Origin: Alphaproteobacteria bacterium
GTDB lineage: Bacteria; Pseudomonadota; Alphaproteobacteria; UBA828
Length of the DNA: 64,000 nucleotides
Direction: 5' to 3'
NCBI GenBank assembly: GCA_965214705.1
Contig: CBDCCI010000002.1
Span: forward strand, 1,728,001-1,792,000
Below the pieces are notes generated by a model, which did not search any database, was not told the origin of the DNA, and saw only the letters and a program-made list of their open reading frames with translations. Each line of letters opens with the position of its first letter. Positions within the stretch are counted from its first letter, which is position 1. Shown here piece after piece: positions 12,739 through 52,852 of the stretch. The position numbers and the translations under genes were made by a program.

Positions 12739-12741
12739 GGC

Positions 12742-21777: not shown

Positions 21778-21816
21778 CGCCGGTGCGGCGCCCGATTACT
21801 CGTAGGGGAGTGGATC

Positions 21817-23272: not shown

Positions 23273-24244
23273 CGGCGCACCTGCGGTGCTAAGTATCTGA
23301 CTAAGGGTCGCTTTTTCTCCCGCATATTGTTGCATCCGGACGGATCGGTCAACGCCCGGTTCCCCGGCTGCAACCGCAACCGGGAGAGAGGATATGCCCA
23401 AAACCAACCTCACCGACGCCCGCATCGGGGCGCTCAAGCCCCGCAAGGCCGCCTACGACGTCCGCGACGGCAAGCTCAAGGGTTTCGGCGTCCGGGTGCT
23501 GCCCTCGGGCGGCAAGCGCTTCTTCGTCCACTGCCAGCATCGCGGCAAACGAGTGTGGAAGATCGTCGGAGACGCCGAGGCGGTCGGCGTGATCGAGGCG
23601 CGCTCGCGCGCGAGCGGGATGCTGGCCGCGATCGGGCGGGGCGACACCGCGCCGCCCCGTCCCGAGGAGGCGCTCTTCGAGGCCGTCGCGGAGACCGTAT
23701 TCCGACAACACGAGCGGACATGGAAGCCGCGCACGCTCGCTGTCAACCGGGGCTACCTCCGCAACCAGATCATGCCCCATTTCGCGGGGCGCAATGTCGC
23801 CGATATCGACCGGCGCGAGGTGCGCGACTGGTTCGCATCGCTGGCCGCCACGCCGGCTGCCGCCGACAGGTCCATGCCGATCCTCTCGGTCATCATGCGC
23901 GAGGCGGAACGGATGGGGCTGCGGCCCGAGGGCTCCAACCCATGCCGGGGCATCCGGCGCTACCGCCGCAAGGGGCGCGAGCGGTTCCTGTCGGACGACG
24001 AGATCCGGAGGCTCTCCCGGGCGCTCGCGGCGCACGCCGAGGCGTGTCCGGGGCAGGTCGCCGCGATCCGCCTGCTCCTTTTGACCGGATGCCGCAAGAG
24101 CGAGATCCTGACGCTGCGCTGGTCCGACTACCGCGAGGGCCGCCTGTTCCTGCGCGACTCCAAGACCGGACCGAGGACCGTCTGGCTGTCCGCGCCCTCG
24201 CGGGCCGTCCTCGACGGCATCGCGCGGACCGGCCGTTGGGTCTT

Positions 24245-26907
24245 GAACGAAGCCGCTACGCGGAGTTAGCGGCGTAGAGTTCATTCATTTCCGAGGCGTC
24301 GCGGGTGCCGTTTGTTCTGTGCGTTCGCTTCCCGGTTGCGTCAGTGGCGCTCCGCCCGTCGGGTGGCGGATCCCCAGCAGCCTCCCGATCACCAGTGGTT
24401 AGTATCGACCCCTGCGACGGACCGTCGCCGGATCGGTCCGGCGGCGCGCCGTCGCGATCCAGGGAGATCGATAATGACCGGGACCGCGTGCGACACGAAC
24501 ACCGTCACCCCTCTTCGCCAGCGCATGGAGGAGCAGCTCCGCATCGCCAATCTGGCCGCGAGCACGTCCAAGGCCTACATCTGCGAGATCAAGAACCTGG
24601 CCAGGTACTACGACGCCTCGCCGGACGAGCTCGACGCCGAGCAGGTGCGCCAGTGGTACCTGGGGCGGATCGACAAGGGGCTCAGTCCGGGCACGACCAA
24701 CGTCTCCTTCGCCGCGCTGAACTTCCTCTACATCGACACACTCGGCTGGCCTGACCATGTCGCCGGCCTGCGCTCCCGCAAGAAGCCCGGCAAGCTGCCG
24801 CGCTACATGTCGGAGCAGGAGGTCGAGCACCTCATCCTTGCGACACCCGACCTCCGCCACCGTGCTGCCATTGTCACCGGCTATGGCGGCGGGCTCCGCA
24901 TCTCCGAGACCTTGGCCATCAAGGTCGGCGACATCCTGTCGGAGAAGAAGCTGCTGCACATCCCCTCCGGCAAAGGCGGCACCGAGAGAATGGCACCGTT
25001 GCCGGACATCGTCATCCACTACTTGCGCGTCTACTACAGGAACATCTGGCCGCGTCCGACGAGCTGGCTCTTCTACGGCGTCTCGCTCGACAGGCCCATC
25101 GCAACGGAGACCTTGCAGGCCGCCTTCAGGAGGGCGCGCGACATTGCCGAGCTCGACCGCAGCTACACCTTCCATTGCCTGCGCCATTCGGCGGCGACCC
25201 ATCTCCTCGAGCGCGGCGGCGATATCGAGGTGATCCGGGACATGCTCGGCCATCGAAGCGCGAACACGACCCGTCACTACGCCCGCGTCACCGGCAAGAT
25301 GTTCGAGGGCCTCGACCACCCGATCTCAGGCTTCGCAGCGTTGCGCAACTGACGGCGCGTGGAGGCCGAACGCGCGGGCGTGGCGGAGATCTTCCGCCGC
25401 GCCGGCGCCGCTTTCCGTGAGCGCCACAAAGGGCGCATCGACGCCGCCCGGCTCAAGGTCATGGGCGCCATCGAGGCGTGCCGCACCGCCGTGCTCGGCG
25501 GCCACATGTACGCCTGCGAGGGCTGCGGGCGCGAGCATCCGCTCTTCAACTCCTACCGCAACCGCCACTGCCCCACCTGCCAGGGTCTCGCCGCCAACCT
25601 CTGGAGCGAGGAGCGCGCCGGGGACATCCTGCCGGTGCCCTACTTCCATGTGGTCTTCACCCTGCCCAAGGAGGTTGCCGCCATTGCCTTCTGCAACCGC
25701 AGGGTGGTGTTCGACATCCTCTTCCGGGCCGTCGCCGAGACCCTGCGCACCATCGCCGCCGATCCCCGCCACGGCGGCATGCGCATCGGCGGCACCGCGG
25801 TCCTCCATACCTGGGATCAGAAGCTCCGCTTCCACCCGCACCTGCACGTGGTCGTGCCCAACGCGGGCTTCGACGTAGACAGTGGCGAGTGGAAGACGGG
25901 GAGCACCACCTTCCTCGCCCCCGTCAAGGTCCTCGGCAGCCTGTTCCGCCGCCTCTTCCTCGAGGAGCTCGCCCGCGCCCACGGCCGGGGGGACCTGGAG
26001 TTCCACGGCACCCTCGCCCACCTCGCCAATCCCGGCGAGTTCCACGCCACGCTTGCCGCCGCCCGGGCCAGGGACTGGGTGGTCTACGCCAAGCGGCCCT
26101 TCCGCGGGCCTGAGCAGGTCTTCCGGTACCTCTCGCACTACACGCACAGGATCGCCATCTCCGACAGCCGCATCGTCTCCTTCGACGGCGAGACGGTCTC
26201 CTTCCGCCACCGAAAGCCCAAGGCGCCGGGGCAGAGAAAGCCGCGCTACGGCATCGCCACCGTGAGCGCCGACGAGTTCATCCGCCGCTTCCTGAGGCAC
26301 GTCCTGCCGGACGGCATGCACCGCATTCGCTACTTCGGCATCCTCGCCAACGGCTGCCGCGCCAGCACGCTGGAGAGAGCACGCCAGGCTCTCGGCGCCC
26401 TCGGCTGCGCCGCCCCCGAGGGAAGCGTGGACGGCGCTCGGGCCGAGCCCGACGAAGAGCCCGAGATCGGCACCGCGCCCGTGGCCTGCCCCCACTGCGG
26501 CGGCGTCATGCGCCTCGTCCGCGAAATCCGCCGCCGCCATGAGCCCCGCTCGACGCGCGGCCCGCCGGCGCTGCCGCCGACCCACAGGGGGAAACCGTGA
26601 GACGCCCGCTCGCTTCGGCCCCGCGCAACGGCGCCAAAGCGCCGACGCACGACCGAACCTGTCTCCGCTTGAGCCGGGCTGACAGCCCTCGGCTCACACC
26701 CCGCTCAGTCCTCGCAGCGTGCGCCCGCATGCCTGCCGAAAGACCGGCGCGAGCGTCGATTTTATGCGCAACTCTGCTGCCGGTGGATGCCGCCTGACGC
26801 TGACATCAGCGCACTTTCCACATAGCTCAACTTCGCCTCTCGTGGCCCGCGGCTTCGTTCAAAAGGGTTGGGCAGGCTCTCGAGAGAGAGCCTGCCCAAC
26901 CCTTAAC
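24245..26907 (+). mobile_element. YR-HUH element copy C (recombinase 24474..25352, transposase 25359..26600)
   Basis: Near-identical to copy B; C-to-Y change in the zinc finger (NSYRNRHC); last base displaced to 29006 by IS1634. Confidence 0.92.
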
Positions 26908-28999
26908 CCGAACTTCCAGTGTGGGATAGTCAAAGAACCGTTGTGCGGCAGGGGTTTCGGCGAGTTTCGAAGCGACGATTACTGGACAGGTTTGGCGGTG
27001 GTCATCCCCTTTTCGGTGAGCGCGGGCGCAGGATGGGGCCGCAGCCCGAGCAATGCGAACGCCCTTTCCTGCAGTTCGGTCGGCTTGGTCAGGGCGGGCA
27101 CGGCGAAGTCGGTTCCGGTGGCGATCTCAGTGGCAGCAAGCGTGCCGAGATGGCCGAGGAGATCGCGGAAGTCGCACACCGCAAGTCCATCATCCGTCTT
27201 TCGGCGCTTGTCCTTGCGCCGGGCCTTTTCCGAGCGTTCCGGCGGCGCCACCGGGTTCGCGGACAGCGGCGCTCCGTCCTCCTCGGCGAACAGCAGCGGC
27301 GCCAGCCTGCGGCGCATGTGCCACTCGACATACCAAGCCAGCATGCAGATCAGAAGATGCGCCCGTACTCGGTCGTCGCGCCAGTGGAAGATCGGGCGGA
27401 TCCGCAACGACACCGTCTTGAGCGAGCGGAAGGCGCGCTCGACGCGTGACAGGCTCTTGTAGACGCGGACCGCCTCGACGTCCTCGATCTCGTCCTCGTC
27501 CACGTTGGTGCGTATGACGTAGAGACCGTCGAGGGCGGCCTCGGCGTCGATCGACGCCCGGTCGCGTTCGCAACTGAAGGTGCCGCTGCCCTCGTCGAAT
27601 TCGAAGCGGAAGTGCTTGGCCATCTTGCGGCGGCGCAAGGTTCCCAGCCGACGGTTCAACTCGTCGCGGTCGATGTCGCCGGCGGCGTGGCGCGCGGCGA
27701 AATCGCGCGCGTCCGTCTCGGTCGCATTGAGCAGCCCGTCGCGGTTGCGCTTGCGCTCGGCCGCCAGAACCGGGTTGTAGCAGACGATCAGCCTCTCGCC
27801 GGGATAGTCCGGCGTGGTCACCCGCGCGAGGCCCCAGGTGTCGAACAGGCCGGGCGTGACATGCCCCCGGTCGACGAGCTTGCGGATCGAGGATGCGCGC
27901 AGCGCCGTGATCCAGTCGATGCCGTTGGGCGCGAGGTCGCGGTCGATGCGGGTCTGCGCGATCATGCCGCGGTCCCCCACCAACACCACCCGCCGGATGC
28001 CGAAGCTGTCGCGGACCTTGCGCACCTGGCTGGCCAGAGTCATCGGGTCGCCGGTGTTGCCGGCGAAGGCCTCGATCGAGACCGGACAGCCATCGCGGGT
28101 GCAGAGGAGGCCGTAGACGATCTGCGGGCGGTCGCCCCGGCGATCCCTCGAATAGCCGCGCTTCGCCATGGGGCAGGCGTTGCCCTCCATGTAGCTCGAG
28201 GACACGTCGTAGAGGACGAGATCGTCCTCTCCGAGATGGCGCCGGGCGAGCTTGCGCTCGATCGCGCCCTGTCGCGCGCCCAGCCAGTCCATGGCGGCGT
28301 AGAGTTCGTCGACGCTGACGCCTTCGACGCCGAGCAGGGCGGCGAGGGTGGTTGTGCCGGCCGCTCCCAGTTCGCGCTCGACGCGCAGCTTGGCGCCGGG
28401 CCGGATCAGGCGGGCGACGATCATGGCGATGACGAGGGCCCTGCGGCGATCGGGCCGGTGGAAGATGACGCGGTCGAGGCCGATGTCGCGAAGGGTGCCG
28501 AGAACGGCGCTGACGGCGCCGTGCGCCCGGCTGGCGCGCAGTTCGACGTCGGCGCTGTCGGGATTGAGGGCGGGTCCGCGCTTGAGGGCGCGTTTGAGGG
28601 CTTCGATGGCGTGTTCCGGGAGGGCGGAGAGGTTGCACAGGGTGCGCTTCTTGGGTTTTCCGTCCTGCCAGTAGGACTGTCTGAGGAGGTGGCAGCGGGA
28701 GTTTCCGGACCGGGTGGTTTCGATGTGCATATCGATCTGCCTAGCGAATCGCGGCAATCATATCGGAAAGGCTTGGGAATGCGGAGCAATTATCGTAACG
28801 AGAAAACTATCTACTGACTAGTATTCAGGTTTTGGTGGATGCGCCGGGACGGCGTGATCCAGCGCTGGAGCGCCGAATCGCGGCGGTTTCGGCGATCATT
28901 TCGGGAATTTCGCGCCAAACCGGGCGCTAAACTGCGCAGAAAGGGCGGAAACAGGCAAAATCCGGCCAGATCGGCAATCAGATGCTAACGGAAGTTCGG
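26908..28999 (-). mobile_element. IS1634-family element; transposase 26979..28730
   Basis: IRs ccgaacttcc / ggaagttcgg; 6-bp TSD cttaac; YDVSS, GYSRD, VGDRGM, VERAFRSLK, RPIFHW. Confidence 0.93.
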
Positions 29000-29281
29000 C
29001 TTAACCTTCCGTCGCCGCATACCGGACGCGCGCACTGCGAACACTGGCTGGACAGATTCTGGTGGCGCATCCGGGCGGAGGCCGATCTCGGCGACGCCCG
29101 TCTTCACGATCTCCGCCATACCCATGCCAGCATCGCGCTGCGCGAGGGCGAGACCGTGCTCGCCATCGGCAGACTGCTCGGACATGCCGATCCGGGGACC
29201 ACCCTCAAGTATGCCCACCCGGCCGACGCCATGACGCGGCAGGCCGCCGAGACCGTCGGCGCCGTGCTGGGGAGCTGAGCC

Positions 29282-30442
29282 GTGCCGGCAAGGGAACGCA
29301 GGAAGCTCACCGACGACGCCGTCGCAGGTCTCCGCCCCCGCGCGCGGGAGTATGCCGTCTGGGACAAGAGCGTGCCCGGCCTCGGGGTCCGGGTCCGTCC
29401 GAGCGGCGGAAAGACCTGGGTTCTGCTGGAGCGCGCCGGGGGGCGCTCCAGGCGCGTCTCCCTCGGCCCGGTCTCGACCAGGACCGTGGAGCAGGCGCGG
29501 CGGGAGTGCCATGAGCGCCGGGCAAGCCCGGAGACGGACAAGCCCGTCCGTCCGGCGCCCGCCGCCCCCCTGTTCCGGGAGTTCGTGGAGGGTCCATGGA
29601 AGGAGGCGATTTTCGGGCGCTGCAAGCCCGCGACCGGGAAGTCCTATGCCTGCCTGCTCGATACCCGCCTCCTCCCCGCCTTCGGCGCGACCCCGCTCGA
29701 GCGCATAACGCCTGCGCAGGTCAGGCGCTGGTTCGACGCATTCAGCTGCGCCGCGCCCGGCAACGCCAACAATGCGCTCAAGCTGCTTCGCTCGATACTC
29801 AACCTCGCCATCGCCCGCGGCCTCCTCGACAGCAACCCCGCGCAGGGCATCGCGCCCAACCGCCGGCCGCCGATGACGCGCTTCCTGTCGCGCGAGGAGA
29901 TCGCGCGTCTTCACGCCGTCCTCGACGAAGAGGCCAAGCGGGGAGAGCGGTTCAGGCCGCAGGCCGACATCGTCCGCCTGCTGCTTCTCACCGGATGCCG
30001 CAGGGGAGAAATCGCCGGGCTCCGCTGGTCCGAGGTCCAGGGCGGCGCGCTGATGCTTGCCGACAGCAAGACCGGGCCGAGAAAGGTTCCCCTCAACGCC
30101 CAGGCCAGGAGCATCCTGGACCGCCAGAAGCGGGGAGAAAGCCGGTTCGTGTTCCCTTCGCCGCGCGATCCGTCGCGGCCGCGCGGGTCCGAACTCTCTC
30201 TCTGGTACCGGGTCCGCCGCAAGGCCGGCATCGAGGACGCGCGCCTTCATGACCTGCGCCATACCGTGGCGAGCCACGCCGTGATGAACGGCGTGCCGGT
30301 CCCTGTCGTCTCCCGGCTGCTTGGCCACTCCAATTCGCGCATGACGCTCCGCTACGCCCACCTCGGCGACCGCGACATCGAAGCCGCCGCCGAGAGGGTC
30401 GGAAAGGCCATCGCGGACACCATGGGCATGCAGGCTCGGTAG
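29282..30442 (+). CDS. Arm-type tyrosine integrase (second of pair)
   Basis: Paralog of 11593..12738; TGCRRGE, DSKTG, HDLRH, LLGH, TLRY. Confidence 0.92.
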   Translation: MPARERRKLTDDAVAGLRPRAREYAVWDKSVPGLGVRVRPSGGKTWVLLERAGGRSRRVSLGPVSTRTVEQARRECHERRASPETDKPVRPAPAAPLFREFVEGPWKEAIFGRCKPATGKSYACLLDTRLLPAFGATPLERITPAQVRRWFDAFSCAAPGNANNALKLLRSILNLAIARGLLDSNPAQGIAPNRRPPMTRFLSREEIARLHAVLDEEAKRGERFRPQADIVRLLLLTGCRRGEIAGLRWSEVQGGALMLADSKTGPRKVPLNAQARSILDRQKRGESRFVFPSPRDPSRPRGSELSLWYRVRRKAGIEDARLHDLRHTVASHAVMNGVPVPVVSRLLGHSNSRMTLRYAHLGDRDIEAAAERVGKAIADTMGMQAR

Positions 30443-30821: not shown

Positions 30822-31142
30822 TCACCGCAGAGACGGCCCGGGCATGAGCCCGGCCGGCCCGTTGCCGATCGACTTCTTCAGCTTCTGCGACGCGCGGAAC
30901 ACCACGACCCGGCGCGGCGATATCGCAGCCGGTTCACCGGTCTTCGGGTTGCGGCCCATGCGCGCCTTCTTGGCCCGCACGGCGAAGCTGCCGAAGCCGG
31001 AGATCTTCACCGGCTTCCCGGCGGACAGCCGCTCGGCGACGGCCTCGATGACGGTATCGACAAGCGCCGCCGCCTCGTTGCGCGGCAGCCCGATCTCGTG
31101 GTGGACCGCGTCTCTCAAGTCGGCCCGCTTCAGCGTCGCCAT
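30822..31142 (-). CDS. ihfA: Integration host factor subunit alpha-like protein
   Basis: VKISGFGSF..RAKKARMGRNPKTGE...ISPRRVVVFRASQKLK; RBS gaggtg. Confidence 0.88.
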   Translation of the reverse strand: MATLKRADLRDAVHHEIGLPRNEAAALVDTVIEAVAERLSAGKPVKISGFGSFAVRAKKARMGRNPKTGEPAAISPRRVVVFRASQKLKKSIGNGPAGLMPGPSLR

Positions 31143-31260: not shown

Positions 31261-34257
31261 TCATCGGGGATTCGCATGTTCTGGCAGGATGACTGCCGCG
31301 GCCCGGTCTATGGCGGCAAAAACGCCCTGCTCGTCCAGCAGCGAGCGAATCCGACTCGATGCGGCGACCTGACCATATCGAGCGGTTTGCCGGGAGAGCC
31401 AAGTCCTAGCGGCCCGCTCAGCTCGATTGCACAGACGCGCCAGGTCGCGATGCACCTCGTCGGTGGCATCGTAGCGGGGGATCGGGATCGTGCGCCAGGG
31501 ATGTTGATGGAAGTCCCGGCCGCTCGTTCGAGATTCCTGGAATGCCCGCGACAGGCAAGGAGCATTCAGGAGTGCGGTCAGATATCCAGCTTCTCCGGCG
31601 CTGGCTGCGTTGAAGTAGTAGAGGGTGTCGTCAACGACAAACGACCTCGCTTGGCTCCGAGCTCCCCGCATGATGTCTCCCGACTTCGGATACAGGACGA
31701 GGGTTCGCCGTGTGCCCGCGCGGGCTAACTGCCCGGAGAGCTTGCCGTTGTGGTCAAGCTGCGCAATCAGCCTTTCCGGGGTATTGCGGCCGCGTCCGCG
31801 GAACTCGTCATAGGCGGCATCCAGAACCCGCCAGAAAGGAGAGAAGCGTTCGGGAGCCTCTTCCAGTTGCCCGTCGGCGTCCGTCGGGATGATCGCGCGC
31901 GGCAACTCTGGAAGGATTGCAAACGCGAACATCTCCTTCGAGGTCAGCAGCTCCCGAGCCCAGCGTGCGGGAACGACACCGGTCTGCGGCTCAAGTTCCG
32001 TCCAAGGCTCCTGTCTCGAAGGTACGGTAGTCACCGTTATTTCTTCATTCCGTGGCCCGTCGGCGATCTCGCCGACGACAAGAAGCACCCTGGGGCTCAC
32101 CGACGCCCCTTGCCGAAACGGAGTTCGGAGTTGCTTGTTGACATAGCCGGATGCCTGACGCGGTAGCGGCGCAGGCGAACCTTCGAATACGAGGATATTT
32201 CTTGCTTGATCGAGAGACGTGTGCGCCTCGGGTCTGCGGTCGGGACAGTAGGCCCAGAGCGCGCGAGCCACGTTACCGGGTGCGAGCGAAGCCGACGGTC
32301 TTCGCTCGAACAGGACACAGCATCGGCGGGCATCGCCCCCTCCGAACGGTCGTACGGCCTCAAGATCGAGCGATTGCGCCAGGATCGGTTCGTGCCATTC
32401 GCGAAATCTGGCCCAGCTTTCCGCCCGCAAGGCGGACTTCTTAACAATCCAGGCCGCCGGGTCATGGTCCGGGCTTGCGAGATACAGCTGCCGCGCACGT
32501 TTGATGAAGAGCTGGGCGATGTCGAAGTGCGGCGCATTCCTCCCGCCGGTCCAGAGATCGAGGTCCCTGTCGGCAAATTGCTCTAGATCTCGCTTGCGCA
32601 CTTCGGCCTGGATATCCGCCATGGAAACCCATGGAGGGTTGGCGACGATACGGTCGACCTTTTGGTCGGACAAGCGGACCGGGCCGGTGGTGTTGGCGAT
32701 GTACCAAGTCCACACGGAGTTCCCTTCCTTGGCGACGATCTCGATGAATGCGGCGTGGCACGCCTCTACTGCGGCCCGGTCGTCCTCTGGAACCGAATTG
32801 CCGATGTCGGCCGACAATGGCCGGCCCATGCTGGCTTCCTCGATAAGCCGACGCAGGTCGTCGGTGAAGGTCGGCAAGTCGACGAACGATCGCGGTAGCA
32901 GCAGTTCGCGCCCTTGCGGGGTCACAATCCGGATTTCCCCGTTCAGGGGACGGAAGAGCGACGTCTCGTCGTCCGCATTGACGAGCAGCGAGTCCCCCTC
33001 GTAGATCCGGATTCCCGCTTTCCCTCCTGGAGGTTCTGCAGGAAGGGCGCGGAGTAAAGTGGCCCGGGATATTTCCGCAGCTACCGGATGAACGTCGATA
33101 CCGTTTATCAGTCTCGCGACAACCGCGGCGCGTCTCGCGGCTGTATGGCCTTCAAGGGACGGTGTGCCGAGCAGGCGCTGCGCGGCGTAGTAGAGAATCG
33201 TCCCGGAGCCACATGCAGGATCGAGGAACCCGATGCCCTCCAATCGCCCCTGGTTCCGCTCATCCGCGATCGCTGCCGCAATGGCGCGATCGCACCAAGC
33301 CTCGTCGAGCAACTCCTCGACGATCAGACCGGCCAACCAATCCGGTGTGTAATATTCCCCAAAGACCTTACGGTCGCGTTCGCCGACGAAACGTTCGTAA
33401 AGCGGCCGAAGGACGTCTCCCCGCCGCCGGCGCCATTCATAGCCGTGGACCTGCTCCATGAGTCTTGCTGCCCACGTGCGACCACGGGTCGTTGCAAGAA
33501 TCCAGGCGACAATTCCGTCTACCAGCACGTCCGAGGGATTCGGAGCATCGTTCGGCTCGGCCAGTGTCTGCACCACGCCCCGGGCGAGAGCCACCAGAAA
33601 CGAATGAGTGACGAAGAGACGGTCTCGCGCCGCCTCGTTTTCCGGCTCCATGCTTGCGGTTCGGAGCATATCGAGCCACAGGTCTCTCTTCGTCCGTGTT
33701 TCCGCGAGATACGCGCCTCCCAGTTCCGAATAAATCGCCTGGAGCTCGTCGTGTGCGGGCTCGAAGAGGGGCCGCGGGTCCGAGGGAACCCATGGTTTTC
33801 CTATCGGGTCACCGCCGACGAGGGGACTGATGCGATGAATAAGGTCCTCGGCGCCCCTTGGCACGAACCCTTCGAGGAGTGTTCGGGCGCGCGTTTCGCG
33901 CTCGTTGTCGTAAACCCAGGCATGCCATACACGCCCGTCTGTCAGAATGCCCACCCACGGGCGCTCGGCACGTTCGTCGAACGCGAACATCTCCTTGTCA
34001 CGACGCAGTTCGCTCAGGACATAGCGCTCAAGCTGTTGCAGCGGCGATTCGTTGTTTTCCCGGGCCTGCGGTGCGTGGGGATCGCGCGCCAGTCCGCGAG
34101 CTTTCGTTTCGATGATCGTGCGCCGGCGTTGAAGGTAGAGGTCAGCCGGACCACCAGGAGTGGGGTACGAGAGGGTGTAGTCGACATCGAAGGAGCCGAG
34201 AAAATCCCCAACATTGCGCCGAACATTGTCCTCATGAAGCCTCGGTGACGCGTCCAA
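31261..34257 (-). CDS. Type IIG-like restriction-modification enzyme (nuclease + N6 methyltransferase + TRD), 5' end probably lost
   Basis: N-terminal ADL..IIETK..ILTDGRVW; GEYYTP, FLDPACGSGT, VANPPW. Confidence 0.8.
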   Translation of the reverse strand: MDASPRLHEDNVRRNVGDFLGSFDVDYTLSYPTPGGPADLYLQRRRTIIETKARGLARDPHAPQARENNESPLQQLERYVLSELRRDKEMFAFDERAERPWVGILTDGRVWHAWVYDNERETRARTLLEGFVPRGAEDLIHRISPLVGGDPIGKPWVPSDPRPLFEPAHDELQAIYSELGGAYLAETRTKRDLWLDMLRTASMEPENEAARDRLFVTHSFLVALARGVVQTLAEPNDAPNPSDVLVDGIVAWILATTRGRTWAARLMEQVHGYEWRRRRGDVLRPLYERFVGERDRKVFGEYYTPDWLAGLIVEELLDEAWCDRAIAAAIADERNQGRLEGIGFLDPACGSGTILYYAAQRLLGTPSLEGHTAARRAAVVARLINGIDVHPVAAEISRATLLRALPAEPPGGKAGIRIYEGDSLLVNADDETSLFRPLNGEIRIVTPQGRELLLPRSFVDLPTFTDDLRRLIEEASMGRPLSADIGNSVPEDDRAAVEACHAAFIEIVAKEGNSVWTWYIANTTGPVRLSDQKVDRIVANPPWVSMADIQAEVRKRDLEQFADRDLDLWTGGRNAPHFDIAQLFIKRARQLYLASPDHDPAAWIVKKSALRAESWARFREWHEPILAQSLDLEAVRPFGGGDARRCCVLFERRPSASLAPGNVARALWAYCPDRRPEAHTSLDQARNILVFEGSPAPLPRQASGYVNKQLRTPFRQGASVSPRVLLVVGEIADGPRNEEITVTTVPSRQEPWTELEPQTGVVPARWARELLTSKEMFAFAILPELPRAIIPTDADGQLEEAPERFSPFWRVLDAAYDEFRGRGRNTPERLIAQLDHNGKLSGQLARAGTRRTLVLYPKSGDIMRGARSQARSFVVDDTLYYFNAASAGEAGYLTALLNAPCLSRAFQESRTSGRDFHQHPWRTIPIPRYDATDEVHRDLARLCNRAERAARTWLSRQTARYGQVAASSRIRSLLDEQGVFAAIDRAAAVILPEHANPR

Positions 34258-41994: not shown

Positions 41995-42395
41995 GAAGCG
42001 CGTTCGGGAGGGAGGCCCTGAAATCCATGACTACAAAAATCAGGAATTTACCGCTTGTGGCGGTGGCAGCGTTGGTGCTGACCGTGTCCGCATGCGGGGG
42101 TGGCGGCCCGGCCACCGACGGCGATGACATGATGCCCGGTGACGGCGACGGCATGACGCCTGGTGATGGCGATGGAATGATGCCGGGCGACGGCGACGGA
42201 ATGGTGACCGAATACGGGCACGGGTTGGAAGCCAGCCCCCTGTCCTCGCCGACTGCCTCGAGCGCGACGGATTCGCTGGAGAATTTGGATGCCGCCGAGA
42301 CGGCGTTTGCGCCTGTAACGGCGCCCGTCAAGATCACGTCGGACGACATGGGCCAGGCAGGCGTCGTGTTGCTGGAGGACGACGAAGAGGCGTAA

Positions 42396-44555: not shown

Positions 44556-47307
44556 GTAAGCGGTACGCAGACCCCATACCGGAATCTGGCTTGACTACGA
44601 CGGGGATTTCTTGAGGAGCGCCGTGAGCGCGCGAGTCATTTTGCCTCGGGCTGGAAGTTCCACGGCAGAAGCTCCTGGATGCCCGACTGCGGGTGGCCCT
44701 TGGCGATCTTCTCGAGCGTGCTCCGCATCCAGGCGTAGGGCTCGACGCCGTTCATCTTGCAGGTCTCGATCAGCGAGGCGATGCGGGCCCAGGCTTGCGC
44801 ACCCTCGTCGTTGCCGGCGAAGAGCGCGTTCTTGGCGGTGAGCTTCAGCGGCCGGATTCGGTTTTCCACCAGGTTCGAGTCGATCTCGACACGACCGTCG
44901 TGCAGGAACTCCAGCAGCCCGTCCCACTGGTTGGCGATATAGGTCAGCTTCTCGCCGAGACGCGAGCGCGGTGAGACGCGCGAGCGCTGCTCGTCGAGCC
45001 AGACACCGAAGGTGTTCACGATCGGCGCCGACTCCTCCCAACGGATCGCGCGGCGCTCCGCCGGCGGCTTGCCCCGGATCTTCTTCTCGATCGCATAGAG
45101 CTTCGCGATCCGATTCAGACCGGCCAGCGCGATCGGCGATGCGCTCGAGTCGTATACCTCTTTCAGCTTCCGTCTTACATGCGCCCAACAGAGGGCCCGC
45201 GTCACAGGGCCTTCCGCCCGGTCCGGCCGCGCCAGGATGTTGTGGCCCGAGTAGCCGTCGAGCTGCACCGTCCCCGAAAAGCCCTCCATAAGCTCGGCGC
45301 CATACTTGCCGCCGCGGCCGGGCGCATAGCGATAGACGACGCCCGGCGGGTCCGTGCCGCTCCAGTGGCGCTCGTCACGCACAAGGGTCCACATGTAGCC
45401 CGTCTTCGTCTTGCCCCGGCCCGGGTCGAGAACGCGGATCGTGGTCTCGTCCAGACCCAGGTGATCCGACTTCTTCAGCTCATCCTCCAGGCAAGCGACC
45501 ACGGGGCGCAGGTGAAACGACGCCTGGCCCACCCACGTCGCCAGCGTCGCACGGTGAACCTCGATCCCCGAGCGCTCGTAGATCTGCGACTGGCGATAGA
45601 GCGGGCAATGATCGCCGTACTTCGCGATCAGCACCTGCGCCAGAAGAGCCTCGGTGGGAAGGCCGCCCTCGACCAGAGCGGCCGGCGCCGGCGACTGCAC
45701 CACCCCGCCCCCCTTGCACTTGTTGCAGGCGTAGCGGGGGCGCACGGTCTCGATGACGGTGAACTTCGCCGGCTCATAGTCCAGCCGCTCGCTGCGGTCC
45801 TCGCCGATCTTCGTCATCTCGCCGCAGCCGCAGGGGCACATGATCGTGTCCGGCTCGATCACCTCCTCGCGCCGGTCGACCTGGGGCCCGAAGCGCACCC
45901 CGCTGCGCGACCCCCGGGAAGAGCGCCGCCGGCGCTTGCCGCCAGCCCCCTCGTCCTGCTCCTGGTCATCTGCCTCGGGCCGACCGCCGGCTTCAGCGAT
46001 CGCCGCCCAAAACTCCTCGAACGTAAGCTGGCGCTCGTCCTCGCCGAGCTTCTCGGAGCGCGGACCGAACAGCGCCTTCCTGAGCTCCTTGTTGAGATGC
46101 TCAAGCCGGCTGATCTGCTCCGCGCTCTGCGCGTTCTCGGCCTCCAGCCGTGCCGCCCGCGCTTCCGCCGTCTGCCTCGCCGCCTCCGCCGCGCCGCGTG
46201 CCTGCTCCGCTTCGCATAGGGCTGCTTCCGTCGCCCGGCGCGCCGCGCGCTCGTCGTCAAGCTCCGCATGCAGGGCCGCCAGCGCCGCCGAAACCACCGC
46301 AGGCGACGGCGAACCGGCGCTGCTGAGGGGTGAGGGCGTGACCTTCGGCATGGGCCACCCCTTAATCCGATTCGCCAATGCATGACCAGGGAAAAGTGCA
46401 GGCGGGACCGCGACCGAAATCTGCGGCCCCGCCTGCGTGCCGCCTCACTCCGCCGCCAGCGGGCGGCGAACCGGGCGGGCCTTCACCCGGCGCCAGTCCA
46501 GACCCTCGAAGAGGGCCTCGAACTGGCCCTTCGTAAGGCGCATCACACCATCCTCGATCCGAGGCCAGGCGAAGCGGCCCTGCTCCAGACGCTTGTAGGT
46601 CATCACCAGACCGCTGCCGTCCCACGCAAGGAGCTTGAGCCTGTCGCCGCGGCGCGAGCGGAAGATCACGATCACCCCGGAATAGATATCGAGGTCCAGC
46701 TCCCCCGCCGCCGTCGCCGCAAGCGCGTCGTGGCCGCGACGAAAATCAACCGGCCGCGTCGCCAACACGATGCGAAGCGAGGGGGCCGCGATCATGACGA
46801 CGCCCGGCCCAGGCCCGAGGCCACCGCAACAATCCGATCGACCGCGCTCTCCACCGGAAGGCGAACGACCACGCCTAGCGCCTCGATCGCCACCGTCCGC
46901 TCGGACGTCACGCTATCAACCACCACGGGAACAAATGGCGGTGCAGAGCCACCAATCCGAGCGCCCGGAAGAGTTCCCTCCCGCGCGCGCCGCCGCCACT
47001 TGGTCAGGGTCGTATCGCTGACGCCATGGCGGCGCGCGACCGCCGCAACCGAAGAGCCCGGCTCAAAGCTCTCCGAGACAATCCGCGCCTTCTCATCGTC
47101 CGGCCAGCGTCGCATGGGGGCCGGCTCAGACGGAGCCGGGGCGGCTCCCTCAGAAGCTGGGATCTCAACCGAAGCAACAGCGACACCGTCGCCAGATGCC
47201 AAAATCGAATCTGTCATCGCGATCTCTCCTGTGTGGCTCGTGGTCAAGGCGGAGAGTCAGCCCCGAAATCAGATCCGCTGGAAGTATGGGGGCCCGATAC
47301 CGCTTAC
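44556..47307 (-). mobile_element. IS66-family element (tnpA 46792..47217, tnpB 46445..46795, tnpC 44636..46378)
   Basis: gtaagcggta IRs; 8-bp TSD gaagaggc (42384-42391, 47308-47315); PVDFRRG, LDETT, IDSNLVENRIRP. Confidence 0.95.
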
Positions 47308-47392
47308 GAAGAGGCCTATCTGGAGTCGGTCATACACGACGGCGCGGCGGGGTATAGCGTCGTCTACGTTATCGACGGACAGAAGACGCAAG

Positions 47393-49071
47393 GGGTGTGA
47401 TTCTCGTATGGCGATATGCCAGTCGTGATGGCGCTAAAGGATATGGGCTGGTTCATTTTGGTCAAGTAGCGAGTGCCAGGACTTCGGTTGGGCTGATGTT
47501 GTCGTTAGCTGGTCCGGATCGGGCGTCCATGAGCGCATCCCATGCCCGGTCGAAGAGGCCGGATTTGATCAGGGCGCGGAAGGTCAGAACCGCCTGCCCG
47601 CCGTCGATCCGCCAGCGCATGCCCGAGCGTTTCAAGCGCTGCGCGACGAGGGTCTTGCAGGCCGCCTCGACCACACCCGAGCCGATGGCGATGCCCTCTT
47701 CCTTCAGGGCGTGGTAGCGCATCCGATGGCGGTGCTTTCGGAAGAAGGCCAGCTCGCGCTCGATCTCGGCCGGGTCCCCCTTTGCCCTGTCCAGGAGGTA
47801 GCGCAGTGCCCGGATCACCTTGTCGACGCCGCGGGGGTCGTGGCGCAGGATTTCGCGGTGCTTCTCGAACCAGTGGCGCGCCACCGCATGGTCAGAGGCC
47901 ACGCGGAGATGCTCGCAAGCGTGCCAGAAGTCGATGACCTCGGTCTCGGGCGAGAGGCTTTCGAGGAAGGTCCAGTTGTCGGCGGCCCCGTCGGCGACGG
48001 CGCCGATCCTGATCTTCGGGCTCACACGGCGGATATGGGCGACCTCGCTTGCAAGTTGCGCTTTCAGCGCGGCCTTGCCGCTCTCGGGCATACGGCCGAG
48101 ATAGAGGGTCTTCAGCCGTTGGCCCTCGGCGTCGTGGAAGGAGACCGTGCCGCAAGAGGCCTCGCGCCAGCACGCCTCGGCACGGCCGTCCTCGCCGGCC
48201 CGCAGCGCCACCATGACGCCGTCAAGGGAGACGGACGCGGTGACCGCATCGGGCGGTATGCCCTGGGTTTCACGGATGCTGGCCAGCGTCTCCGGGGCGA
48301 CGCTCTCCCAGTGCTCATGCATGCTCAGGGCCAGGCGCTGCAGCGTGCTCACCGACGGCGTCATTCCGCCCATTTTCGCGAAGAACTCCTCCGCTTCACG
48401 CGGCGTACAGTGGCCCATCATCATCAGCCCGAGCTGCGCCGCCGGCCGCGTCAGGTAGTCGTCGATGAGGCCCAGGCTCTCGTCCACCGGCACCAGCGAC
48501 GTGCTGCTCGCGCCGCTGCGATAGCGCGCACGCCGATAGGTCACGGGACCGAGCGTCGTCATGATCGTCTTCGGCGTCGCCGCCACCCGGACCCAGCTCT
48601 GTCCGTCGCGCTCGATCCGGCTCGCACCGTCGTCGCGGCTCTCGGCGAAGGCCCCAAGGAGCTTGCAACCCAAGCCGTTCATGGCGTCCCGCAGCCCCGT
48701 CTCAACCGTTTCGAACGTCTCGGCAGACGGGTCAGACCCAGCCTGTTCGCGACAGAACTCCACCACCTGGGCGACCGCTTCGGCGACTTCGGCAGGCAGG
48801 CCCAAAAGGTCGATGGACGAGGCGATGAGAGACTGCGACACTGGCATGGGAACGCTCCTGATGTTGGGTCTGATGTTGGGTTGTCGGCGCGGCATCCTAC
48901 CGCATCTCGCGGTGCGGAGCGTTCCCACCCACCACTGCTGGATGCCGCCGTTGTGACAAAATCCGGCCCTGCACCGGCCGATTGTCACGAAAACCCGATT
49001 CTGGCTGCCTACGGCCACCCGCCAATCGCGCTAAATCAATGACTTACGATCGCCATGCCAGACCTACACCC
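47393..49071 (-). mobile_element. ISKra4-like element; transposase 47462..48847
   Basis: Imperfect GGG...CCC IRs; 8-bp TSD gacgcaag; SLDG, VADGA, IDFWHA, IGSGVVE, GMRW. Confidence 0.88.
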
Positions 49072-50832
49072 GACGCAAGTCGATTTCGAGGCTGCCGACT
49101 GGGTTTGGGTTCCGCCAGTAACAGACTACTACCAAAAGACCGTCGGCGGTACGACATACGGATTTGCGCACACTCCAATGGTCGCAGACTTTAAGACCGT
49201 TCACCGGCGCTATTTTCAGCTCTTCGCGTGGGAGACGGGCGAGCTGCGAGGCTACGCGGCGCTCGGGGCACTCACGCCGTCGCAAACTCTCGTAAACCTC
49301 GGTAGTGCGACTTACCAAGGCCATATCATCGCCGAGAGACACAACAACTTTACCGACCCGGATTTCAGGGCGGTCCGCGACCTGATGTGGGGTGAGTTGA
49401 CCCTGAACGCCGACTTCTCTGCGAGCACGATATCTGGAGGCGCCCAAAACTTGTGGATTCTACCGTCAGCCGGAACTTGGACGCCGGCTCCGGATACGAA
49501 CTCGATCGCCATTTCGAACGGCGAAATCGATGGGAGTCAATTCCACGCCGAATGGGCGGGCCAGGATACCGACACGAGCTCGGCTCAGGAGGACAGCTTT
49601 CGCGGATTCGAGGGGTCGATGCTGGGCGAGTTCTACGGGCCCAACGGCGAGGAGGTCGGCGGTGTGTTCAGCGGCGAGCGCGCAGCGACCGACCAGGTCA
49701 TCAACGGCCGCTTCGGCGGCGAATCCCAGTCGGCAGCCGCGGCGCGAGCGGCGGTCCAGACCGCGGCGGGTCGCGATGAAGGCATCTCAGTGAGTCAGGA
49801 CCCTGCGGTGTACGCTGACAGTTCCAGCGACACCTTGGCGAGCTTGCTGCCGGACGGCAACACGGTCTTCGCCCCGATCACCGCGGCGCTATACAGGGAC
49901 TGGGACAACAATGAAGTCAGGCAGCCAACAAATGGTGCTGCGTTCGTGAAGTCCATTTCGAGCGACGGCGCAAACGGCTTCAACCTCACCTACGTGATCG
50001 ATGGTAGAGATACAGTGGTGAACTTCTCGACCGATACCTGGAATGAACAATGGAGCAGTTATAATGTGAACCGGAGGGGCGGTGAACTCGATATATGGCG
50101 GTTCAACGACTATTGGCTATGGGCCCATACCGGCTCCTTCTACGATGACCCGAACGACAGAACGAGCGGTTCGTCGGAATTCGCCTACTTCGATATCAAT
50201 GGATGGCAACTTGATAGGACTGGCGACCAATTCCGAGGGTACTCGGTCTACGGCGCGCAGACGCGGCCGCAGAACTTGCCAACGGGAAGCGCCACCTACT
50301 ACGGACGCATGAGCGCTAGCATGTGGCTTGGCGATAATTCGGAACCGTATCCGGGAGATAGCGAATATGTCTACGGCGCTCTGACACTAAACGCCAATTT
50401 CGACAACAACGAAGTCGACGGGCTAATTGACGATCTCTACACGCAGGTCGGTGACTTCAGTACTCCATCCGAGGCGATGGGGACCGGGAACTCGATCGAC
50501 ATTTCCAACGGCGTGATTGCGGATAGCGGGTTCTCTGCTGACTGGGCGGGCTTGGACACTGACGCCAACTCCGCTGCCGAAGACACCGTTCGCGGTTTTA
50601 CAGGAACCATGCTTGGCCAGTTCTACGGACCGGCGGCGGAAGAGGTCGGTGGCGTCATGAACGGGCACCGGCCTCCCATGGGCGACCTTCCTGACTTGTA
50701 CTTCAGCGGAGCGTTCGGAGCGTCGCAGCCCGATCCTAGCGCCCAGCAGTAGGCGAAACATTCGGTTCGCGTTCACGGCTAGACGAAGGTGTCCCCATAG
50801 TTCGGGTCACCACTGTTGTTGCCGCGTGCGCC

Positions 50833-52131
50833 TTGACGGCCTTGGTGGCTGCCGGAGCGCACGCGGAGCCCGTTGAAGCAACCGCTCAGCCTCCGGCCGC
50901 CGCGCCCGAGATTTCGGACTTGGCGGCCGGTCGCCTGCTGATGGAGGCCGGGCGCTTCGAGGATGCGCTGGCGTTCCTGAAGCAGGCCCAGCCAGCTAGC
51001 GAAGAGGAAGCGATCCAACGGCGCTTCTTGTTGGGCGCGGTCTACATGCGCTTGCGCCAGCCGCGCGAGGCTGCCGAACAATACGAAGCGATCCTCGTCA
51101 TCCGTCCCGATCTGACCCGGGTACGACTGGAGCTGGCCCGCGCGCATTACGCCGCCGGACAGGACGACAAGGCCAAGTACCACTTCCAGCTCTCCCTCGG
51201 GGACAAGTTGCCTACGTCGGTCGAGAGTGTGGTGGAAGGGTTTCTCAACGCCATCGACGCGCGCAAGCGCTGGTCGGCCTATGTCTCGATCGCCGCACTG
51301 CCGGAGACCAACGCCGTCCGCCGCACCGACAGGGAAACCGTGCAGATCGGCGGCGCGACCTTCCGGCTGAACGAGGACGCACGGGAAGCATCCGGCATCG
51401 GCACGCAGCTCTCGGTGGGCGGCGCCTTCTTTCCGACCATAGGCCCTGGCCTGCGCGGGCACTTGGCCCTCTCCACAGCCGCCAAGCTCTATGAGCAATC
51501 GGCATGGAACGACATCGCGCTCGTCAGCAAGGCCGGACTCACGCGGCTGTTCGATGGCGGCAGCGCGTCAGGTGGCGTACAATTTGGTCGCCGCTGGCAA
51601 GGCACGGCAGGGTTCCAGTCCAGCGTCGGGCCCTGGGGGAGCGTCGACTACCGCCTGTCCAACCGGACGCGCGTCAGCGCCTCCACGAGCGCCGATTACC
51701 GCAAGCACGATGAGAGGGACGGCCTGGATGGCTGGCGCGTGTCGCTCAATCCCGCCGTCCGCTACGTGCTGGACAGTCAGACCGTGCTGGAGGCGGGGCC
51801 GCAGTTCGAACTTGTCGACGCGCGCGCGGATCACCGGAGCAGCCGCCTGACCGGTCTTGGGGTCGGTATCTCGCGGGCATTCGAGAACGGGATTACGGCA
51901 TCGCTTTCCGCATCGGCCCAACTGAATGGATACCGTGGCGAGGACCCGCTGTTCGGGAAGACAAGGGAAGACCGGATTGCGTGGCTGAGCGTCAGGGTGT
52001 TGCACCGGTCCTTTCAACTTGGCGGCTTCGCGCCTTATGTAGGCTACACCTACGAGCGCAGCACCTCCAACATTTCCCTGCACAATTACGAGAACCACGG
52101 CGCGATCCTGGGCCTCACCCGAGAGTTCTGA
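50833..52131 (+). CDS. Slam-family (DUF560) outer-membrane surface-lipoprotein translocon
   Basis: N-terminal TPR (RPDLTRVRLELARA) plus beta-barrel with SNISLHNY and terminal Phe; directly downstream of the TbpB-like gene. Confidence 0.88.
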   Translation: MTALVAAGAHAEPVEATAQPPAAAPEISDLAAGRLLMEAGRFEDALAFLKQAQPASEEEAIQRRFLLGAVYMRLRQPREAAEQYEAILVIRPDLTRVRLELARAHYAAGQDDKAKYHFQLSLGDKLPTSVESVVEGFLNAIDARKRWSAYVSIAALPETNAVRRTDRETVQIGGATFRLNEDAREASGIGTQLSVGGAFFPTIGPGLRGHLALSTAAKLYEQSAWNDIALVSKAGLTRLFDGGSASGGVQFGRRWQGTAGFQSSVGPWGSVDYRLSNRTRVSASTSADYRKHDERDGLDGWRVSLNPAVRYVLDSQTVLEAGPQFELVDARADHRSSRLTGLGVGISRAFENGITASLSASAQLNGYRGEDPLFGKTREDRIAWLSVRVLHRSFQLGGFAPYVGYTYERSTSNISLHNYENHGAILGLTREF

Positions 52132-52159
52132 CAGCCGCCTCGACCTGCTCTGATGCCCG

Positions 52160-52418
52160 CGTCTGACACCGCGGGATTCAGACCCCCCCTCGCCATATCG
52201 GCGGGCCAGAGATGCGGCCTTCGGCCAACGAAAGAGCCTCGGCATCCCGGATGATGTTTCTTTCGGTGCTCAATAGCTCCGCCCACACGCGCCCCTGTCA
52301 ACGCTTGACCCTCGCCCTCGCGAGCGACGGCCCATGACTCGGGGTGGAAGTGGTGGCTCACCTTCTCCTTCCTGTTGGACTTTCACCAACTGCACTCGCA
52401 CCAGTTCGCCTGGCGCAC
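52160..52418 (-). ncRNA. Group II intron 5' fragment (domain I)
   Basis: Starts gtgcgccaggc; shares ggtgaaagtcc, attgagcaccgaaa, gccgaggc and ccgcggtgtc with 61188-61858. Confidence 0.8.
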
Positions 52419-52494
52419 ACCGTTCCCACTCCGCATCGGTGGCCATGACCGCGCGCTGGTGCCGTCCGCCGGCGTCCTCCTTCATCGTGGCCAT
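52419..52494 (-). pseudogene. RHH protein 5' part, interrupted by the group II intron
   Basis: RHQRAVMATDAEWER resembles RKQHAVMTTASEWAR at 5124. Confidence 0.65.
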
Positions 52495-52852
52495 CCGCCC
52501 GTAGGGACCTGCTGCAACCGCGACACGCGGCTACCCTTGAATGTAGAATAGATCACGAAATTCATATGGAATTCCTAGCACCAAATATTATATGCCATAC
52601 GTGTGTCCTGTCTGAATGATCCATTTTCGCCACAGGCACCATATCAGTGCTCCACAGGAAATTCCACATCTCGGCTTCCCCAAATGCAACTCACAAGAGA
52701 CACAAGATCAGCCGATGTGTCCTCCACCTTCGCTCCATTCGCCCTTGACATCACTCATAACCCACTGTAGCATAAGTCTAATACAGGAGGAAACTGCAAC
52801 CCTGCGTCCGCCCTCGTTTGCTGCAAAATTGCTTAAGGAAGTGCACACCTCG

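Follow-up and report, generated by a model that had tools for sequence, protein, structure and literature searches.

We analyzed a 64,000-nt stretch of DNA (the window) from an alphaproteobacterium of the UBA828 lineage, corresponding to positions 1728001-1792000 of contig C3 (CBDCCI010000002.1) in a 7.9-Mb, three-contig genome crowded with insertion sequences (ISs). We conclude, with a probability of about 0.72, that the segment 23275-52854 is a decayed member of an element family that is integrative, was originally mobilizable, and carries two integrase genes, and that it was inserted by site-specific recombination at ACACC-N5, where N5 denotes five variable bases. The data support a discrete, cargo-carrying element with precise ends, whose signature is a conserved pair of arm-type integrase genes, int1 and int2. 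It lies within ritC, one of the three recombinase genes of a RIT element.

The split gene is on the minus strand, and ritC is interrupted between 23274 and 52853-52855. Its 5' part (52855-53588) runs down from 53588; the minus-strand open reading frame (ORF) 52833-53588, which includes it, enters foreign sequence at 52852 and ends ...FGVYRLIARCALP (…VYRLIARCALP). The 3' part (22995-23274), comprising the C-terminal ~93 codons and the stop, picks up at 23274 and runs downwards. An uninterrupted RIT copy in the same genome (C1:1589015-1594569, locus L007) is 100% identical to both halves, and its matches to them overlap by 2 bp, CG (3' segment end C1:1590475, 5' segment start C1:1590474). Counted from its first ATG, the L007 ritC product has 337 aa (331 aa if translation starts at Met 7), and it reads across the site as ...VYRLIERCAAQVPELADR... 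/ …VYRLIERCAAQVPE…. There are three intact sites with 100% identical flanks in the genome, each reading GCCGCACACC GCTCG ATCAGC, and identity to the empty site is 100% over 400 bp of left flank and 3.1 kb of right flank. An initial annotation, made from the window sequence alone, had claimed that ritC is split and that deletion of the insert yields a 331-aa ORF, and it had suggested a search for empty-site alleles. L007 and the three intact sites bear out the claim: removal of the element restores ritC, and the intact alleles were found within the same genome.

The ends of the element are shared by its relatives. In 36 regions upstream of int1 homologs in this genome, the left end reads (G/A/T)CGCACC-T-N-CGGTGCTAA. 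Five variable bases separate (G/A/T)CGCACC from the motif on its left, which is ACACC in 34 of the 36 and ACACG in the other two; farther left, the sequences are unrelated. As a control for circularity, we repeated the analysis with an anchor that does not use ACACC, in this genome and in 53 loci of other genomes. From 90 int1 starts we obtained 86 anchors and 80 unique flanks; of these, 58 had ACACC in register and ~12 more had it shifted by one base, and no base preference was visible to the left of position -11. To find right ends, we searched with a profile of the last 136 bp of the right arm. The 14 full right ends all finish with (A/G)(G/A)(T/G)(G/T)CACACC (…AAGTGCACACC), followed by five variable bases and then unrelated DNA. 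The junctions are laid out as target…ACACC-N5 | GCGCACC… on the left and …GTGCACACC-N5 | target on the right. Two other routes to the right ends were less productive. Aligned DNA after int2 lost homology stepwise with no common end, and following left-flank paralogs of the copies at ≥95% identity (see below) worked for one of four (C1:2483553), with nothing found for the other three.

Both ends were paired for 11 elements: 4 have the same N5 on the left and right, 4 show one differing base, and 3 show two. This amounts to agreement at 45 of 55 positions, compared with 19.0 +/- 4.6 in shuffled pairings, and none of 20,000 shuffles reached 45. N5 values include TCTTT, TTAAC, and GTCTG. Intact paralogous targets hold ACACC-N5 once, as seen for C3:285711 (7 sites, 98-100% identity), C2:569963, and C1:381014, and a paralog of the target of a 51-kb element likewise has a single N5. 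In the window, the target ACACC (23265-23269) and the target N5, GCTCG (23270-23274), lie within the ritC 3' part, so that the left N5 is that of the target. The right N5, TCGCG, differs from it at 2 of 5 bases, despite the 100% identical flanks. Because the right N5 is not that of the target even though the flanks are identical, N5 is best understood as a crossover or coupling segment rather than a replicative duplication. The junctions demonstrate what is, at sequence level, a conservative insertion at ACACC-N5, in which the target loses no bases on balance, the element end carries the target motif again, and N5 mismatch is tolerated. On the same comparative grounds, the shared core is ACACC plus the five-base segment, and CG is the part of N5 that matches by chance in the window copy. 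A donor-to-recipient chain of N5 values (TGACG on the left at C3:512979 and on the right at C1:1442123) was suggestive; it was dropped, as similar N5 recur between unrelated subfamilies.

The int1 gene of the window is broken at 24244/29007 by 4.8 kb of ISs and is whole only once these are subtracted. Its N-terminal part (23394-24244, plus strand; approximately residues 1-283, with the break mapped against a sister element at C1:1456140) and its C-terminal part with the stop codon (29007-29278, plus strand) are followed after 3 bp by an intact int2 (29282-30442, plus strand). Uninterrupted orthologs at another locus, L003, are likewise 3 bp apart (int1 3673-4794, 373 aa; int2 4798-5949, 383 aa). 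Both integrases have Arm-DNA-bind_3, Phage_int_M / SAM_3, and Phage_integrase domains, with scores for PF13356 and PF00589 of 40.2 and 65.9 bits for int1 and of 36.5 and 80.3 bits for int2 (cut-offs 27 and 27.1). Both thus have the domain that defines arm-type (P4-like, DUF4102) integrases; no NCBIfam model reaches its cut-off for either. Int1 and Int2 are ~38% identical to each other, and the R-K-H-R-H-Y catalytic residues never vary among 68 distinct full-length sequences of int1 and 67 of int2. The initial annotation had described two paralogous arm-type integrases 3 bp apart with complete catalytic motifs, and this description holds, with the addition that the window int1 is IS-broken. In a phylogenetic tree, Int1-type and Int2-type proteins fall in separate clades, and one clade with support of 0.86 contains 28 second genes and no first genes. 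No excisionase-like gene is conserved beside the pair in the family loci examined.

Prediction of an Int1-Int2 complex gave weak support, with a score of 0.47 (best of three controls, 0.00). The runs agreed in at least 84% of contacts, and partner pLDDT was at least 76. The mark applied is reached by 58 of 80 solved complexes and by 2 of 110 mismatched pairs; it is reached with a score of 0.60 or lower by just 7 of the 80 solved complexes and by both passing mismatches. As structures of tyrosine recombinase oligomers have been solved, the pass may reflect likeness to them, and the prediction does not separate hetero- from homo-oligomers.

Outside this genome, int1 has thousands of database relatives, of which the closest named ones belong to metagenome bins of Defluviicoccus and Rhodospirillales. 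When species genomes were scanned, 54 loci emerged, mostly in such bins and with several genomes holding multiple copies; 53 were analyzed, one hit of 25% identity having been dropped. The initial annotation had advised collecting tandem pairs from other genomes and aligning their flanks. When this was done, int2 was found to follow int1 in 42 of the 53 loci, with a gap of 0-6 bp in 38 of the 42, and the remaining 11 loci had a truncated int1 only; the overall figure of 58 of 80 flanks with ACACC includes these genomes. Orthologous Int1-type/Int2-type pairs that overlap by 4 bp (loci L079-L083) were also present on a Shewanella oneidensis MR-1 megaplasmid and on plasmids of S. baltica, Vibrio crassostreae, V. 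europaeus, and Polymorphobacter. These plasmid pairs keep the same gene order and are annotated merely as 'site-specific integrase.' The second Shewanella gene is 40% identical to int2 and 33% identical to int1, and the first and second Shewanella genes fall beside their respective types in the tree. Given the shared order and the clade placement from Alpha- to Gammaproteobacteria, the duo is old and co-inherited. By plasmid typing, the S. baltica BA175 and V. crassostreae plasmids are MOBF conjugative and the S. oneidensis megaplasmid is MOBP mobilizable. The Shewanella and Vibrio pairs have CACAC(C/A) and then a palindrome ~170-190 nt before the first gene (four sequences, two of them on one plasmid backbone, a sample too small to place an element boundary).

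Within this genome, tblastn identified 98 integrase loci and 39 tandem pairs. Approximately 27 of the 39 belong to the family of the window element, and the other 12 to a second, more distant pair family. The integrase pair is present at ≥95% identity in 7 copies, all of which begin at the counterpart of base 23275, next to flanking DNA that is unrelated. The sister element (C1:1456140-1442123) shares its left module with the window element, and their right arms are related. Paired elements span 4.1-51.2 kb, and the 4.1-kb member has int1, int2, an ORF of the endonuclease/exonuclease/phosphatase family, and a NikA-like remnant only. Targets are protein-coding genes and ISs that share just ACACC, and insertions are nested in ISs, in RIT, and in the family's own integrase genes; the 4-51 kb of cargo includes restriction-modification (RM), efflux-like, and surface-lipoprotein genes. 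One member (C1:365442-381014) lies inside the int2 of another, at the EYTVWD codons (CGAGTACACC-GTCTG-GGACAC), where eleven uninterrupted int2 paralogs still have GTCTG (two read the variants GTTTG or GTGTG). The window itself holds a second same-family element (11593-13985, minus strand; a ~72% subfamily), with int1 at 12742-13866 and int2 at 11593-12738. At its left end (13985) it borders on ACACC-ACCCT within a copy of the IS91 family, and its right end is outside the window. The second family comprises 12 tandem arm-type pairs (for example, C1:469817-472202, C2:33005-35374, and C3:225576-227911) that are 35-40% identical to int1/int2, have genes ~100 bp apart, and form their own clade in the tree.

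Two intact relatives, L008 (13.9 kb) and L009 (15.5 kb), carry three ORFs for NikA-like ribbon-helix-helix (RHH) proteins inward from the right arm, followed by a TrwC/MobF relaxase-helicase of 1592 aa (L008) or 1598 aa (L009), which scores 254.9 bits against the NCBIfam MobF model (cut-off 100). Intact family members lie at C3:922930-909021 and C2:569963-554442. Pfam hits of the intact NikA-like orthologs score 24.2, 26.7, and 23.0 bits, all under the cut-off of 27. No mating-pore genes were evident in L008 or L009 by ORF size, as no large ATPase-type ORFs were called, although no profile search for them was made; eight ORFs from the middle of L008 matched no Pfam family. The MOBF relaxase and NikA-like genes of these intact relatives indicate that the family is integrative and mobilizable, and L008 and L009 themselves are, on their gene content, best called integrative and mobilizable elements (IMEs). 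An origin of transfer (oriT) may lie in the right-arm region. The window copy has no relaxase gene within 23275-52854, and its NikA-like gene is cut to ~25 codons, so the IME label does not extend to it. Because int1 is broken by ISs, it is also probably immobile, and it is a decayed relic with no special function.

On the sequence evidence, the element entered ritC by conservative site-specific recombination at ACACC-GCTCG, and the sole sequence required in the target is ACACC, which stands five bases left of the junction. The joined element ends read ...GTGCACACC-N5-GCGCACCTGCGGTGC..., and the junction of the circle would read GTGCACACC-N5-GCGCACCT. After insertion, the integrase-proximal N5 is that of the target (GCTCG), the distal N5 having been brought by the element (TCGCG). 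The mechanism that we propose goes further. The core would form the imperfect palindrome GTGCAC | ACC+N5 | GCGCAC, and by analogy with IntDOT the first strand exchange would fall within the conserved ACACC, with the second crossing the mismatch-tolerant N5. Int1 and Int2 would cooperate in this, most simply as a XerC/XerD-like heterotetramer in which one integrase type recognizes the half-site on the ACACC side and the other the half-site present only in the element, with arm sites (CTGCAACC blocks) and an HU/IHF-type protein shaping the complex. A promoter facing outward at the right end would drive int1-int2 solely in the excised circle. In this scheme, the window copy would have lost its mobilization module, acquired the TbpB/Slam pair as well as the type IIG RM gene, and then been hit by ISs, one of which broke int1.

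Tight coupling of the genes, full catalytic sets, co-inheritance, and one-sided conservation of the target all suggest that Int1 and Int2 may act as a heteromer. With one fully informative N5 case, a biased strand-exchange route is indistinguishable from a 50:50 heteroduplex outcome. A bolder reading would make Int1/Int2 an ancient, obligate heteromeric arm-type recombinase, a XerC/XerD counterpart on mobile DNA, with one subunit alone needing a sequence-specific half-site in the target (ACACC). A classical P4-type system would thereby have become the mismatch-tolerant, low-specificity tyrosine transposase of a widespread and previously undescribed class of mobilizable islands, found in Alphaproteobacteria associated with sponges and sludge and also on plasmids of Shewanella and Vibrio. 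Taken as a whole, we hold this to be conceivable but somewhat doubtful.

It is also important to weigh what speaks against insertion of a two-integrase element at ACACC-N5. The exact left-end pattern occurs in just 2 of 401 sampled genomes of the class (29 sites in this genome and 8 in one genome of another family), and 22 of the 80 unique flanks are without ACACC in exact register. There are 14 full right ends and 37 left ends, so that most pairs have no recognizable right end; these pairs may be truncated, rearranged, or too diverged. The window is the sole case that joins a 100% identical empty site with differing N5 copies, and in the three other cases with close intact paralogs both N5 are those of the target, which alone would resemble a 5-bp duplication. 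In runs X1, X16, and X3, no short-read contig spans 52852 | 53, and X1 lacks coverage at 52702-52809. The right junction is crossed by one 185-nt contig of run X15 (covering 52698-52882), which extends only 30 bases beyond 52852 and may come from the assembly's own source sample. A loose end at 52843 that reads into intact ritC in all four runs was considered as a sign of excision and is uninformative, being expected from the other RIT copies. The nested ISs could have rearranged the interior, and the present order and orientation of the cargo need not be original. No excised circle, excision event, or fresh insertion was observed, all of these steps being deduced from static sequence, and the argument for heteromeric action is made from conservation and a weak prediction.

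Some of these points could be explained in other ways. If the element were made by a transposase-like staggered cut, with the integrases serving something else, it would be flanked by a true 5-bp target duplication, and the 4 of 11 elements with identical N5 copies, three of which have an intact paralogous target with that N5 once, would fit. But the copies differ in the other 7, they differ at 2 of 5 positions in the window between flanks 100% identical to the empty site, the element end repeats ACACC, as att sites do, and the family has no conserved DDE or HUH gene (neither is present in its 4.1-kb member), so we consider a duplication of this kind extremely improbable. We give equally little credence to the proposal of the initial annotation that a two-integrase complex acts on an overlap of only 2 bp. 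Within the window, CG is indeed all that is ambiguous between insert and target, but across the family the junctions share ACACC and the five-base segment (45/55 matching), CG is not conserved among N5 values, and GTGCACACC at the right end mirrors the ACACC of the target; CG is merely a matching part of N5. A composite or an assembly artefact, whether an IS-joined integrase element next to an unrelated right segment or two mis-joined RIT copies, could arise in a region with at least 8 internal ISs, some of them inverted copies able to mediate inversions or deletions, and would account for the runs that fail to bridge the right junction. It is nonetheless very unlikely, as the two ends are cognate ends of one family, stand in the correct relative orientation, and flank exactly adjacent bases of ritC; the sister element combines the same left module with a related right arm; and the X15 contig spans the junction.

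The alternative with the most to commend it accepts the same ACACC-N5 recombination and dispenses with the heteromer: one integrase would integrate and excise alone, and the other would have a separate job, such as control of excision or directionality, resolution of multimers after conjugative transfer, or action at different sites. The occurrence of related pairs on MOBF conjugative plasmids of Shewanella and Vibrio makes a resolution role plausible, the pair conserves no excisionase-like gene, and the complex prediction is weak and blind to the difference between hetero- and homo-oligomers. On the other hand, gaps of 0-6 bp or overlaps of 4 bp between the genes suggest that their expression is coupled; all catalytic residues are kept in the 68 and 67 sequences; the two types stay together from Alpha- to Gammaproteobacteria; and the core is asymmetric (GTGCAC...GCGCAC), with one side only conserved in targets. 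We therefore regard such a division of labor as unlikely, and we retain the reading of a decayed two-integrase element inserted at ACACC-N5.

The element as a whole (23275-52854, plus strand; 29,580 bp) begins GCGCACCTGCGGTGCTAA... and ends ...AAGTGCACACC plus its own N5, TCGCG. Its left arm (23275-23393, plus strand) contains the core half-site, a palindrome GCACC-TGC-GGTGC (23277-23289), and then a conserved block ...CCCCGGCTGCAACCGCAACCGGGAG; it is kept in 36 of 36 regions upstream of int1 homologs in this genome and is found in other genomes as well. The CCCCGGCTGCAACCGCAACCGGGAG block, just before int1, is a candidate arm-type site. The IS block within int1 (24245-29006, plus strand) was delimited by repeats, Pfam, and mapping; Pfam identifies in it an IS91-family unit (tyrosine recombinase ORF 24312-25352, Y2_Tnp 25359-26600) and a DDE_Tnp_1 IS (transposase 26979-28757, minus strand).

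Downstream of int2, a gene for an HU/IHF-type DNA-bending protein (30822-31142, minus strand; Pfam Bac_DNA_binding, 93.5 bits) is common only to the sister element C1:1456140, with homology reaching window position 31173. It is followed by a 998-aa type IIG-like RM/methyltransferase gene (31261-34257, minus strand) with a genome copy number of 1, whose product scores 26.2 bits for Pfam Eco57I (cut-off 25.3), with MmeI and N6_Mtase near or below cut-off. A nested IS block (34262-41854), recognized by copy numbers, repeats, and Pfam, holds IS110-type copies (34703-35890 and 39235-40431), an ISAs1-like element (36308-37465), and the inverted Y2 (37529-38888) and tyrosine recombinase (40538-41849) halves of IS91. 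Beyond a 0.5-kb single-copy stretch (41855-42407), neither ORF of which matched a Pfam family, come three further ISs (42408-49049; copy numbers 26-65 and Pfam): DDE_Tnp_1 (42500-44455), IS66 (44636-46378) with accessory ORFs, and a UPF0236-type IS (47462-49018). The last cargo segment (49055-52131) is single copy in the genome and encodes a TbpB-like surface lipoprotein (49055-50752, plus strand; Pfam TbpB_B_D 76.3 bits and FHBP_C 35.9 bits) and a Slam translocator (50833-52131, plus strand; Pfam SlipAM 102.6 bits). In our reading, the island was hit by at least 8 IS insertions after it gained the RM gene and the TbpB/Slam pair. The non-IS backbone, summed over low-copy segments, is ~10.7 kb, in line with the ~10 kb first estimated. 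Pfam also agrees with the cargo as first described (IHF-alpha, type IIG-like RM gene, TbpB-like lipoprotein, and Slam), with the IHF gene scored as HU/IHF-type.

The gene initially reported as RHH (52270-52494, minus strand) is a remnant of the first of the family's NikA-like genes. It is not a whole gene: just ~25 N-terminal codons match the ~120-aa (120-137-aa) orthologs at other right ends, and the rest is unrelated. A 261-bp segment (52162-52422), with 7 repeats in the genome that are usually beside IS91-family ends, stands in place of most of the window NikA-like gene, and the same fusion is seen at an orphan right end, C1:2015894. The right arm (52500-52849, plus strand) is AT-rich and conserved, with a block AGGAGGAAACTGCAACCCTGCGTC and the terminal GTGCACACC (52841-52849), and related right arms were found elsewhere in the genome by BLAST. 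A promoter scan of it returned 4 sites over both strands, against 0.2 expected. Among its features is an outward promoter-like site, TTGACA-17-TAGCAT (52745-52773); a recognizable −35/−10 pair is present in 13 of 14 right arms, and the fourteenth has TTGCAA at −35. The element-side N5 (52850-52854, plus strand) closes the element, and its last two bases are the CG that first appeared ambiguous.

The IS91-family unit of 2.67 kb has >90 copies in the genome and encodes a 346-aa tyrosine recombinase and a 413-aa Y2/HUH transposase. In the window it occurs at 15953-18624, 24238-26909, and 56956-59619, and its halves are also found separate and inverted at 13983-15193, 37529-38888, and 40538-41849. 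A 42-nt palindrome (AAGGGTTGGGCAGGCTCTC...) marks one end of the unit.

The host of the insertion is identified as a RIT element by the three consecutive Xer-like recombinase ORFs of L007, in the arrangement ritA-ritB-ritC. In the window, the other two recombinase genes occupy 53563-55757 (minus strand; ORFs 53563-54870 and 54510-55757), with Xer-like NCBIfam hits below cut-offs. The trio is bracketed, here (21812-22771 and 55995-56954) and in L007, by 100% identical inverted repeats of 955-960 bp, far above the 34 bp quoted for RIT repeats in the available part of one source (PMC10214605). The repeats each correspond to the 5' portion of a gene of 342-348 aa that weakly resembles TraI in its C-terminal region, and the 5.55-kb RIT unit is present 4 times in the genome (8 arms). 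When window 52000-53600 was compared with public sequencing runs, those from sponge and coral metagenomes matched its RIT portion (about half of the sampled words) and lacked the right arm of the island. The presence of the RIT part without the island arm indicates that near-identical RIT elements with intact ritC circulate in those communities.

Arm-type integrases usually act as a single enzyme on a long identical core, typically in a tRNA gene and often with an excisionase. Against this textbook picture of one enzyme at one site, the integrases described here always come as two, both catalytic and co-inherited across proteobacterial classes, and the family is transposon-like in its 5-bp target motif, its ~27 pairs in one genome, and its nested insertions. 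If the pair is a true heteromer with divided recognition and cleavage, it would represent a new solution to target choice in tyrosine recombination and could be a compact, programmable-looking insertion system. As these genes are at present annotated as 'site-specific integrase' only, the end motifs also provide a simple rule for delimiting such islands: ACACC-N5-(G/A/T)CGCACC-N3-4-GGTGCTAA on the left and GTGCACACC-N5 on the right. The initial annotation did not recognize a described family, and our literature search, which left supplements and subscription journals outside its range, found no description of tandem arm-type integrase pairs; the word 'tandem' is absent from Smyshlyaev et al. 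2021.

Several known systems share part of this picture. According to the part of PMC2817482 available, the overlap region of CTnDOT combines a conserved GC with a coupling sequence of 5 bp, and its second exchange tolerates heterology. CTnDOT and NBU (IntDOT) thus resemble the present family in having an arm-type integrase and a short identity beside a variable 5-bp coupling sequence, which here takes the form of ACACC targets and a GTGCACACC element end with N5, mismatched in 7 of 11 elements. CTnDOT differs in its single integrase and in a conserved motif ending TTTGC, compared with two paralogous P4-like integrases in an alphaproteobacterium. Tn554 and the SE elements, as far as they are described in the accessible portions of PMC10214605 and PMC3414803, also have two catalytic tyrosine recombinases, no true duplication, and the target spacer in the integrase-proximal position; by the former source, attL receives the 6 bp of the target and attR the 6 bp that were carried. 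The window shows the same placement, with the target spacer at one junction and the carried spacer at the other, in its one fully informative case. Tn554 and SEs have one ordinary and one large recombinase together with TnpC/Srap (SEs also Tfp) and 6-bp spacers, whereas here both proteins are ~373-386 aa with Arm-DNA-bind_3, the spacer is 5 bp, and intact members have a MOBF module. There is no TnpC-like or third conserved small gene beside the pair, as judged without direct comparison to TnpA/TnpB/TnpC, and the SE order intA-tfp-intB-srap is not seen, int1 and int2 being 3 bp apart with no gene between.

XerC/XerD likewise are two paralogous, catalytically complete tyrosine recombinases acting on an asymmetric core; they have no arm-binding domain, serve chromosomal housekeeping, and act at dif, and the best Xer NCBIfam scores here are 45.6-65.6 bits against cut-offs of 330-335. 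RIT and GInt elements are also mobile units defined by several adjacent tyrosine recombinase genes. In the descriptions available, RIT has three simple (Xer-like) recombinases and GInt three recombinase-like genes plus ginD, and neither is arm-type; the module studied here has two recombinase genes only, not the four-gene operon ginABCD. BIM elements were considered and set aside, since the accessible text of PMC3414803 gives them one recombinase and an SMC-like protein. P4-type islands and IMEs come close in other respects, with Arm-DNA-bind_3, SAM-like, and catalytic domains, an integrase at one end, variable cargo, and, in intact members, a relaxase and a putative oriT with no type IV secretion genes evident by ORF size. 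The present family departs from the classical members in having two integrases rather than one, a target motif of 5 bp rather than a long core, and dozens of copies in a single genome. Taken together, the mechanism resembles those of CTnDOT/NBU and Tn554/SE, while the family is not a member of either group, whose defining gene sets it does not have. As a protein family, it is a P4-like arm-type system that departs from the one-enzyme, one-long-site habit.

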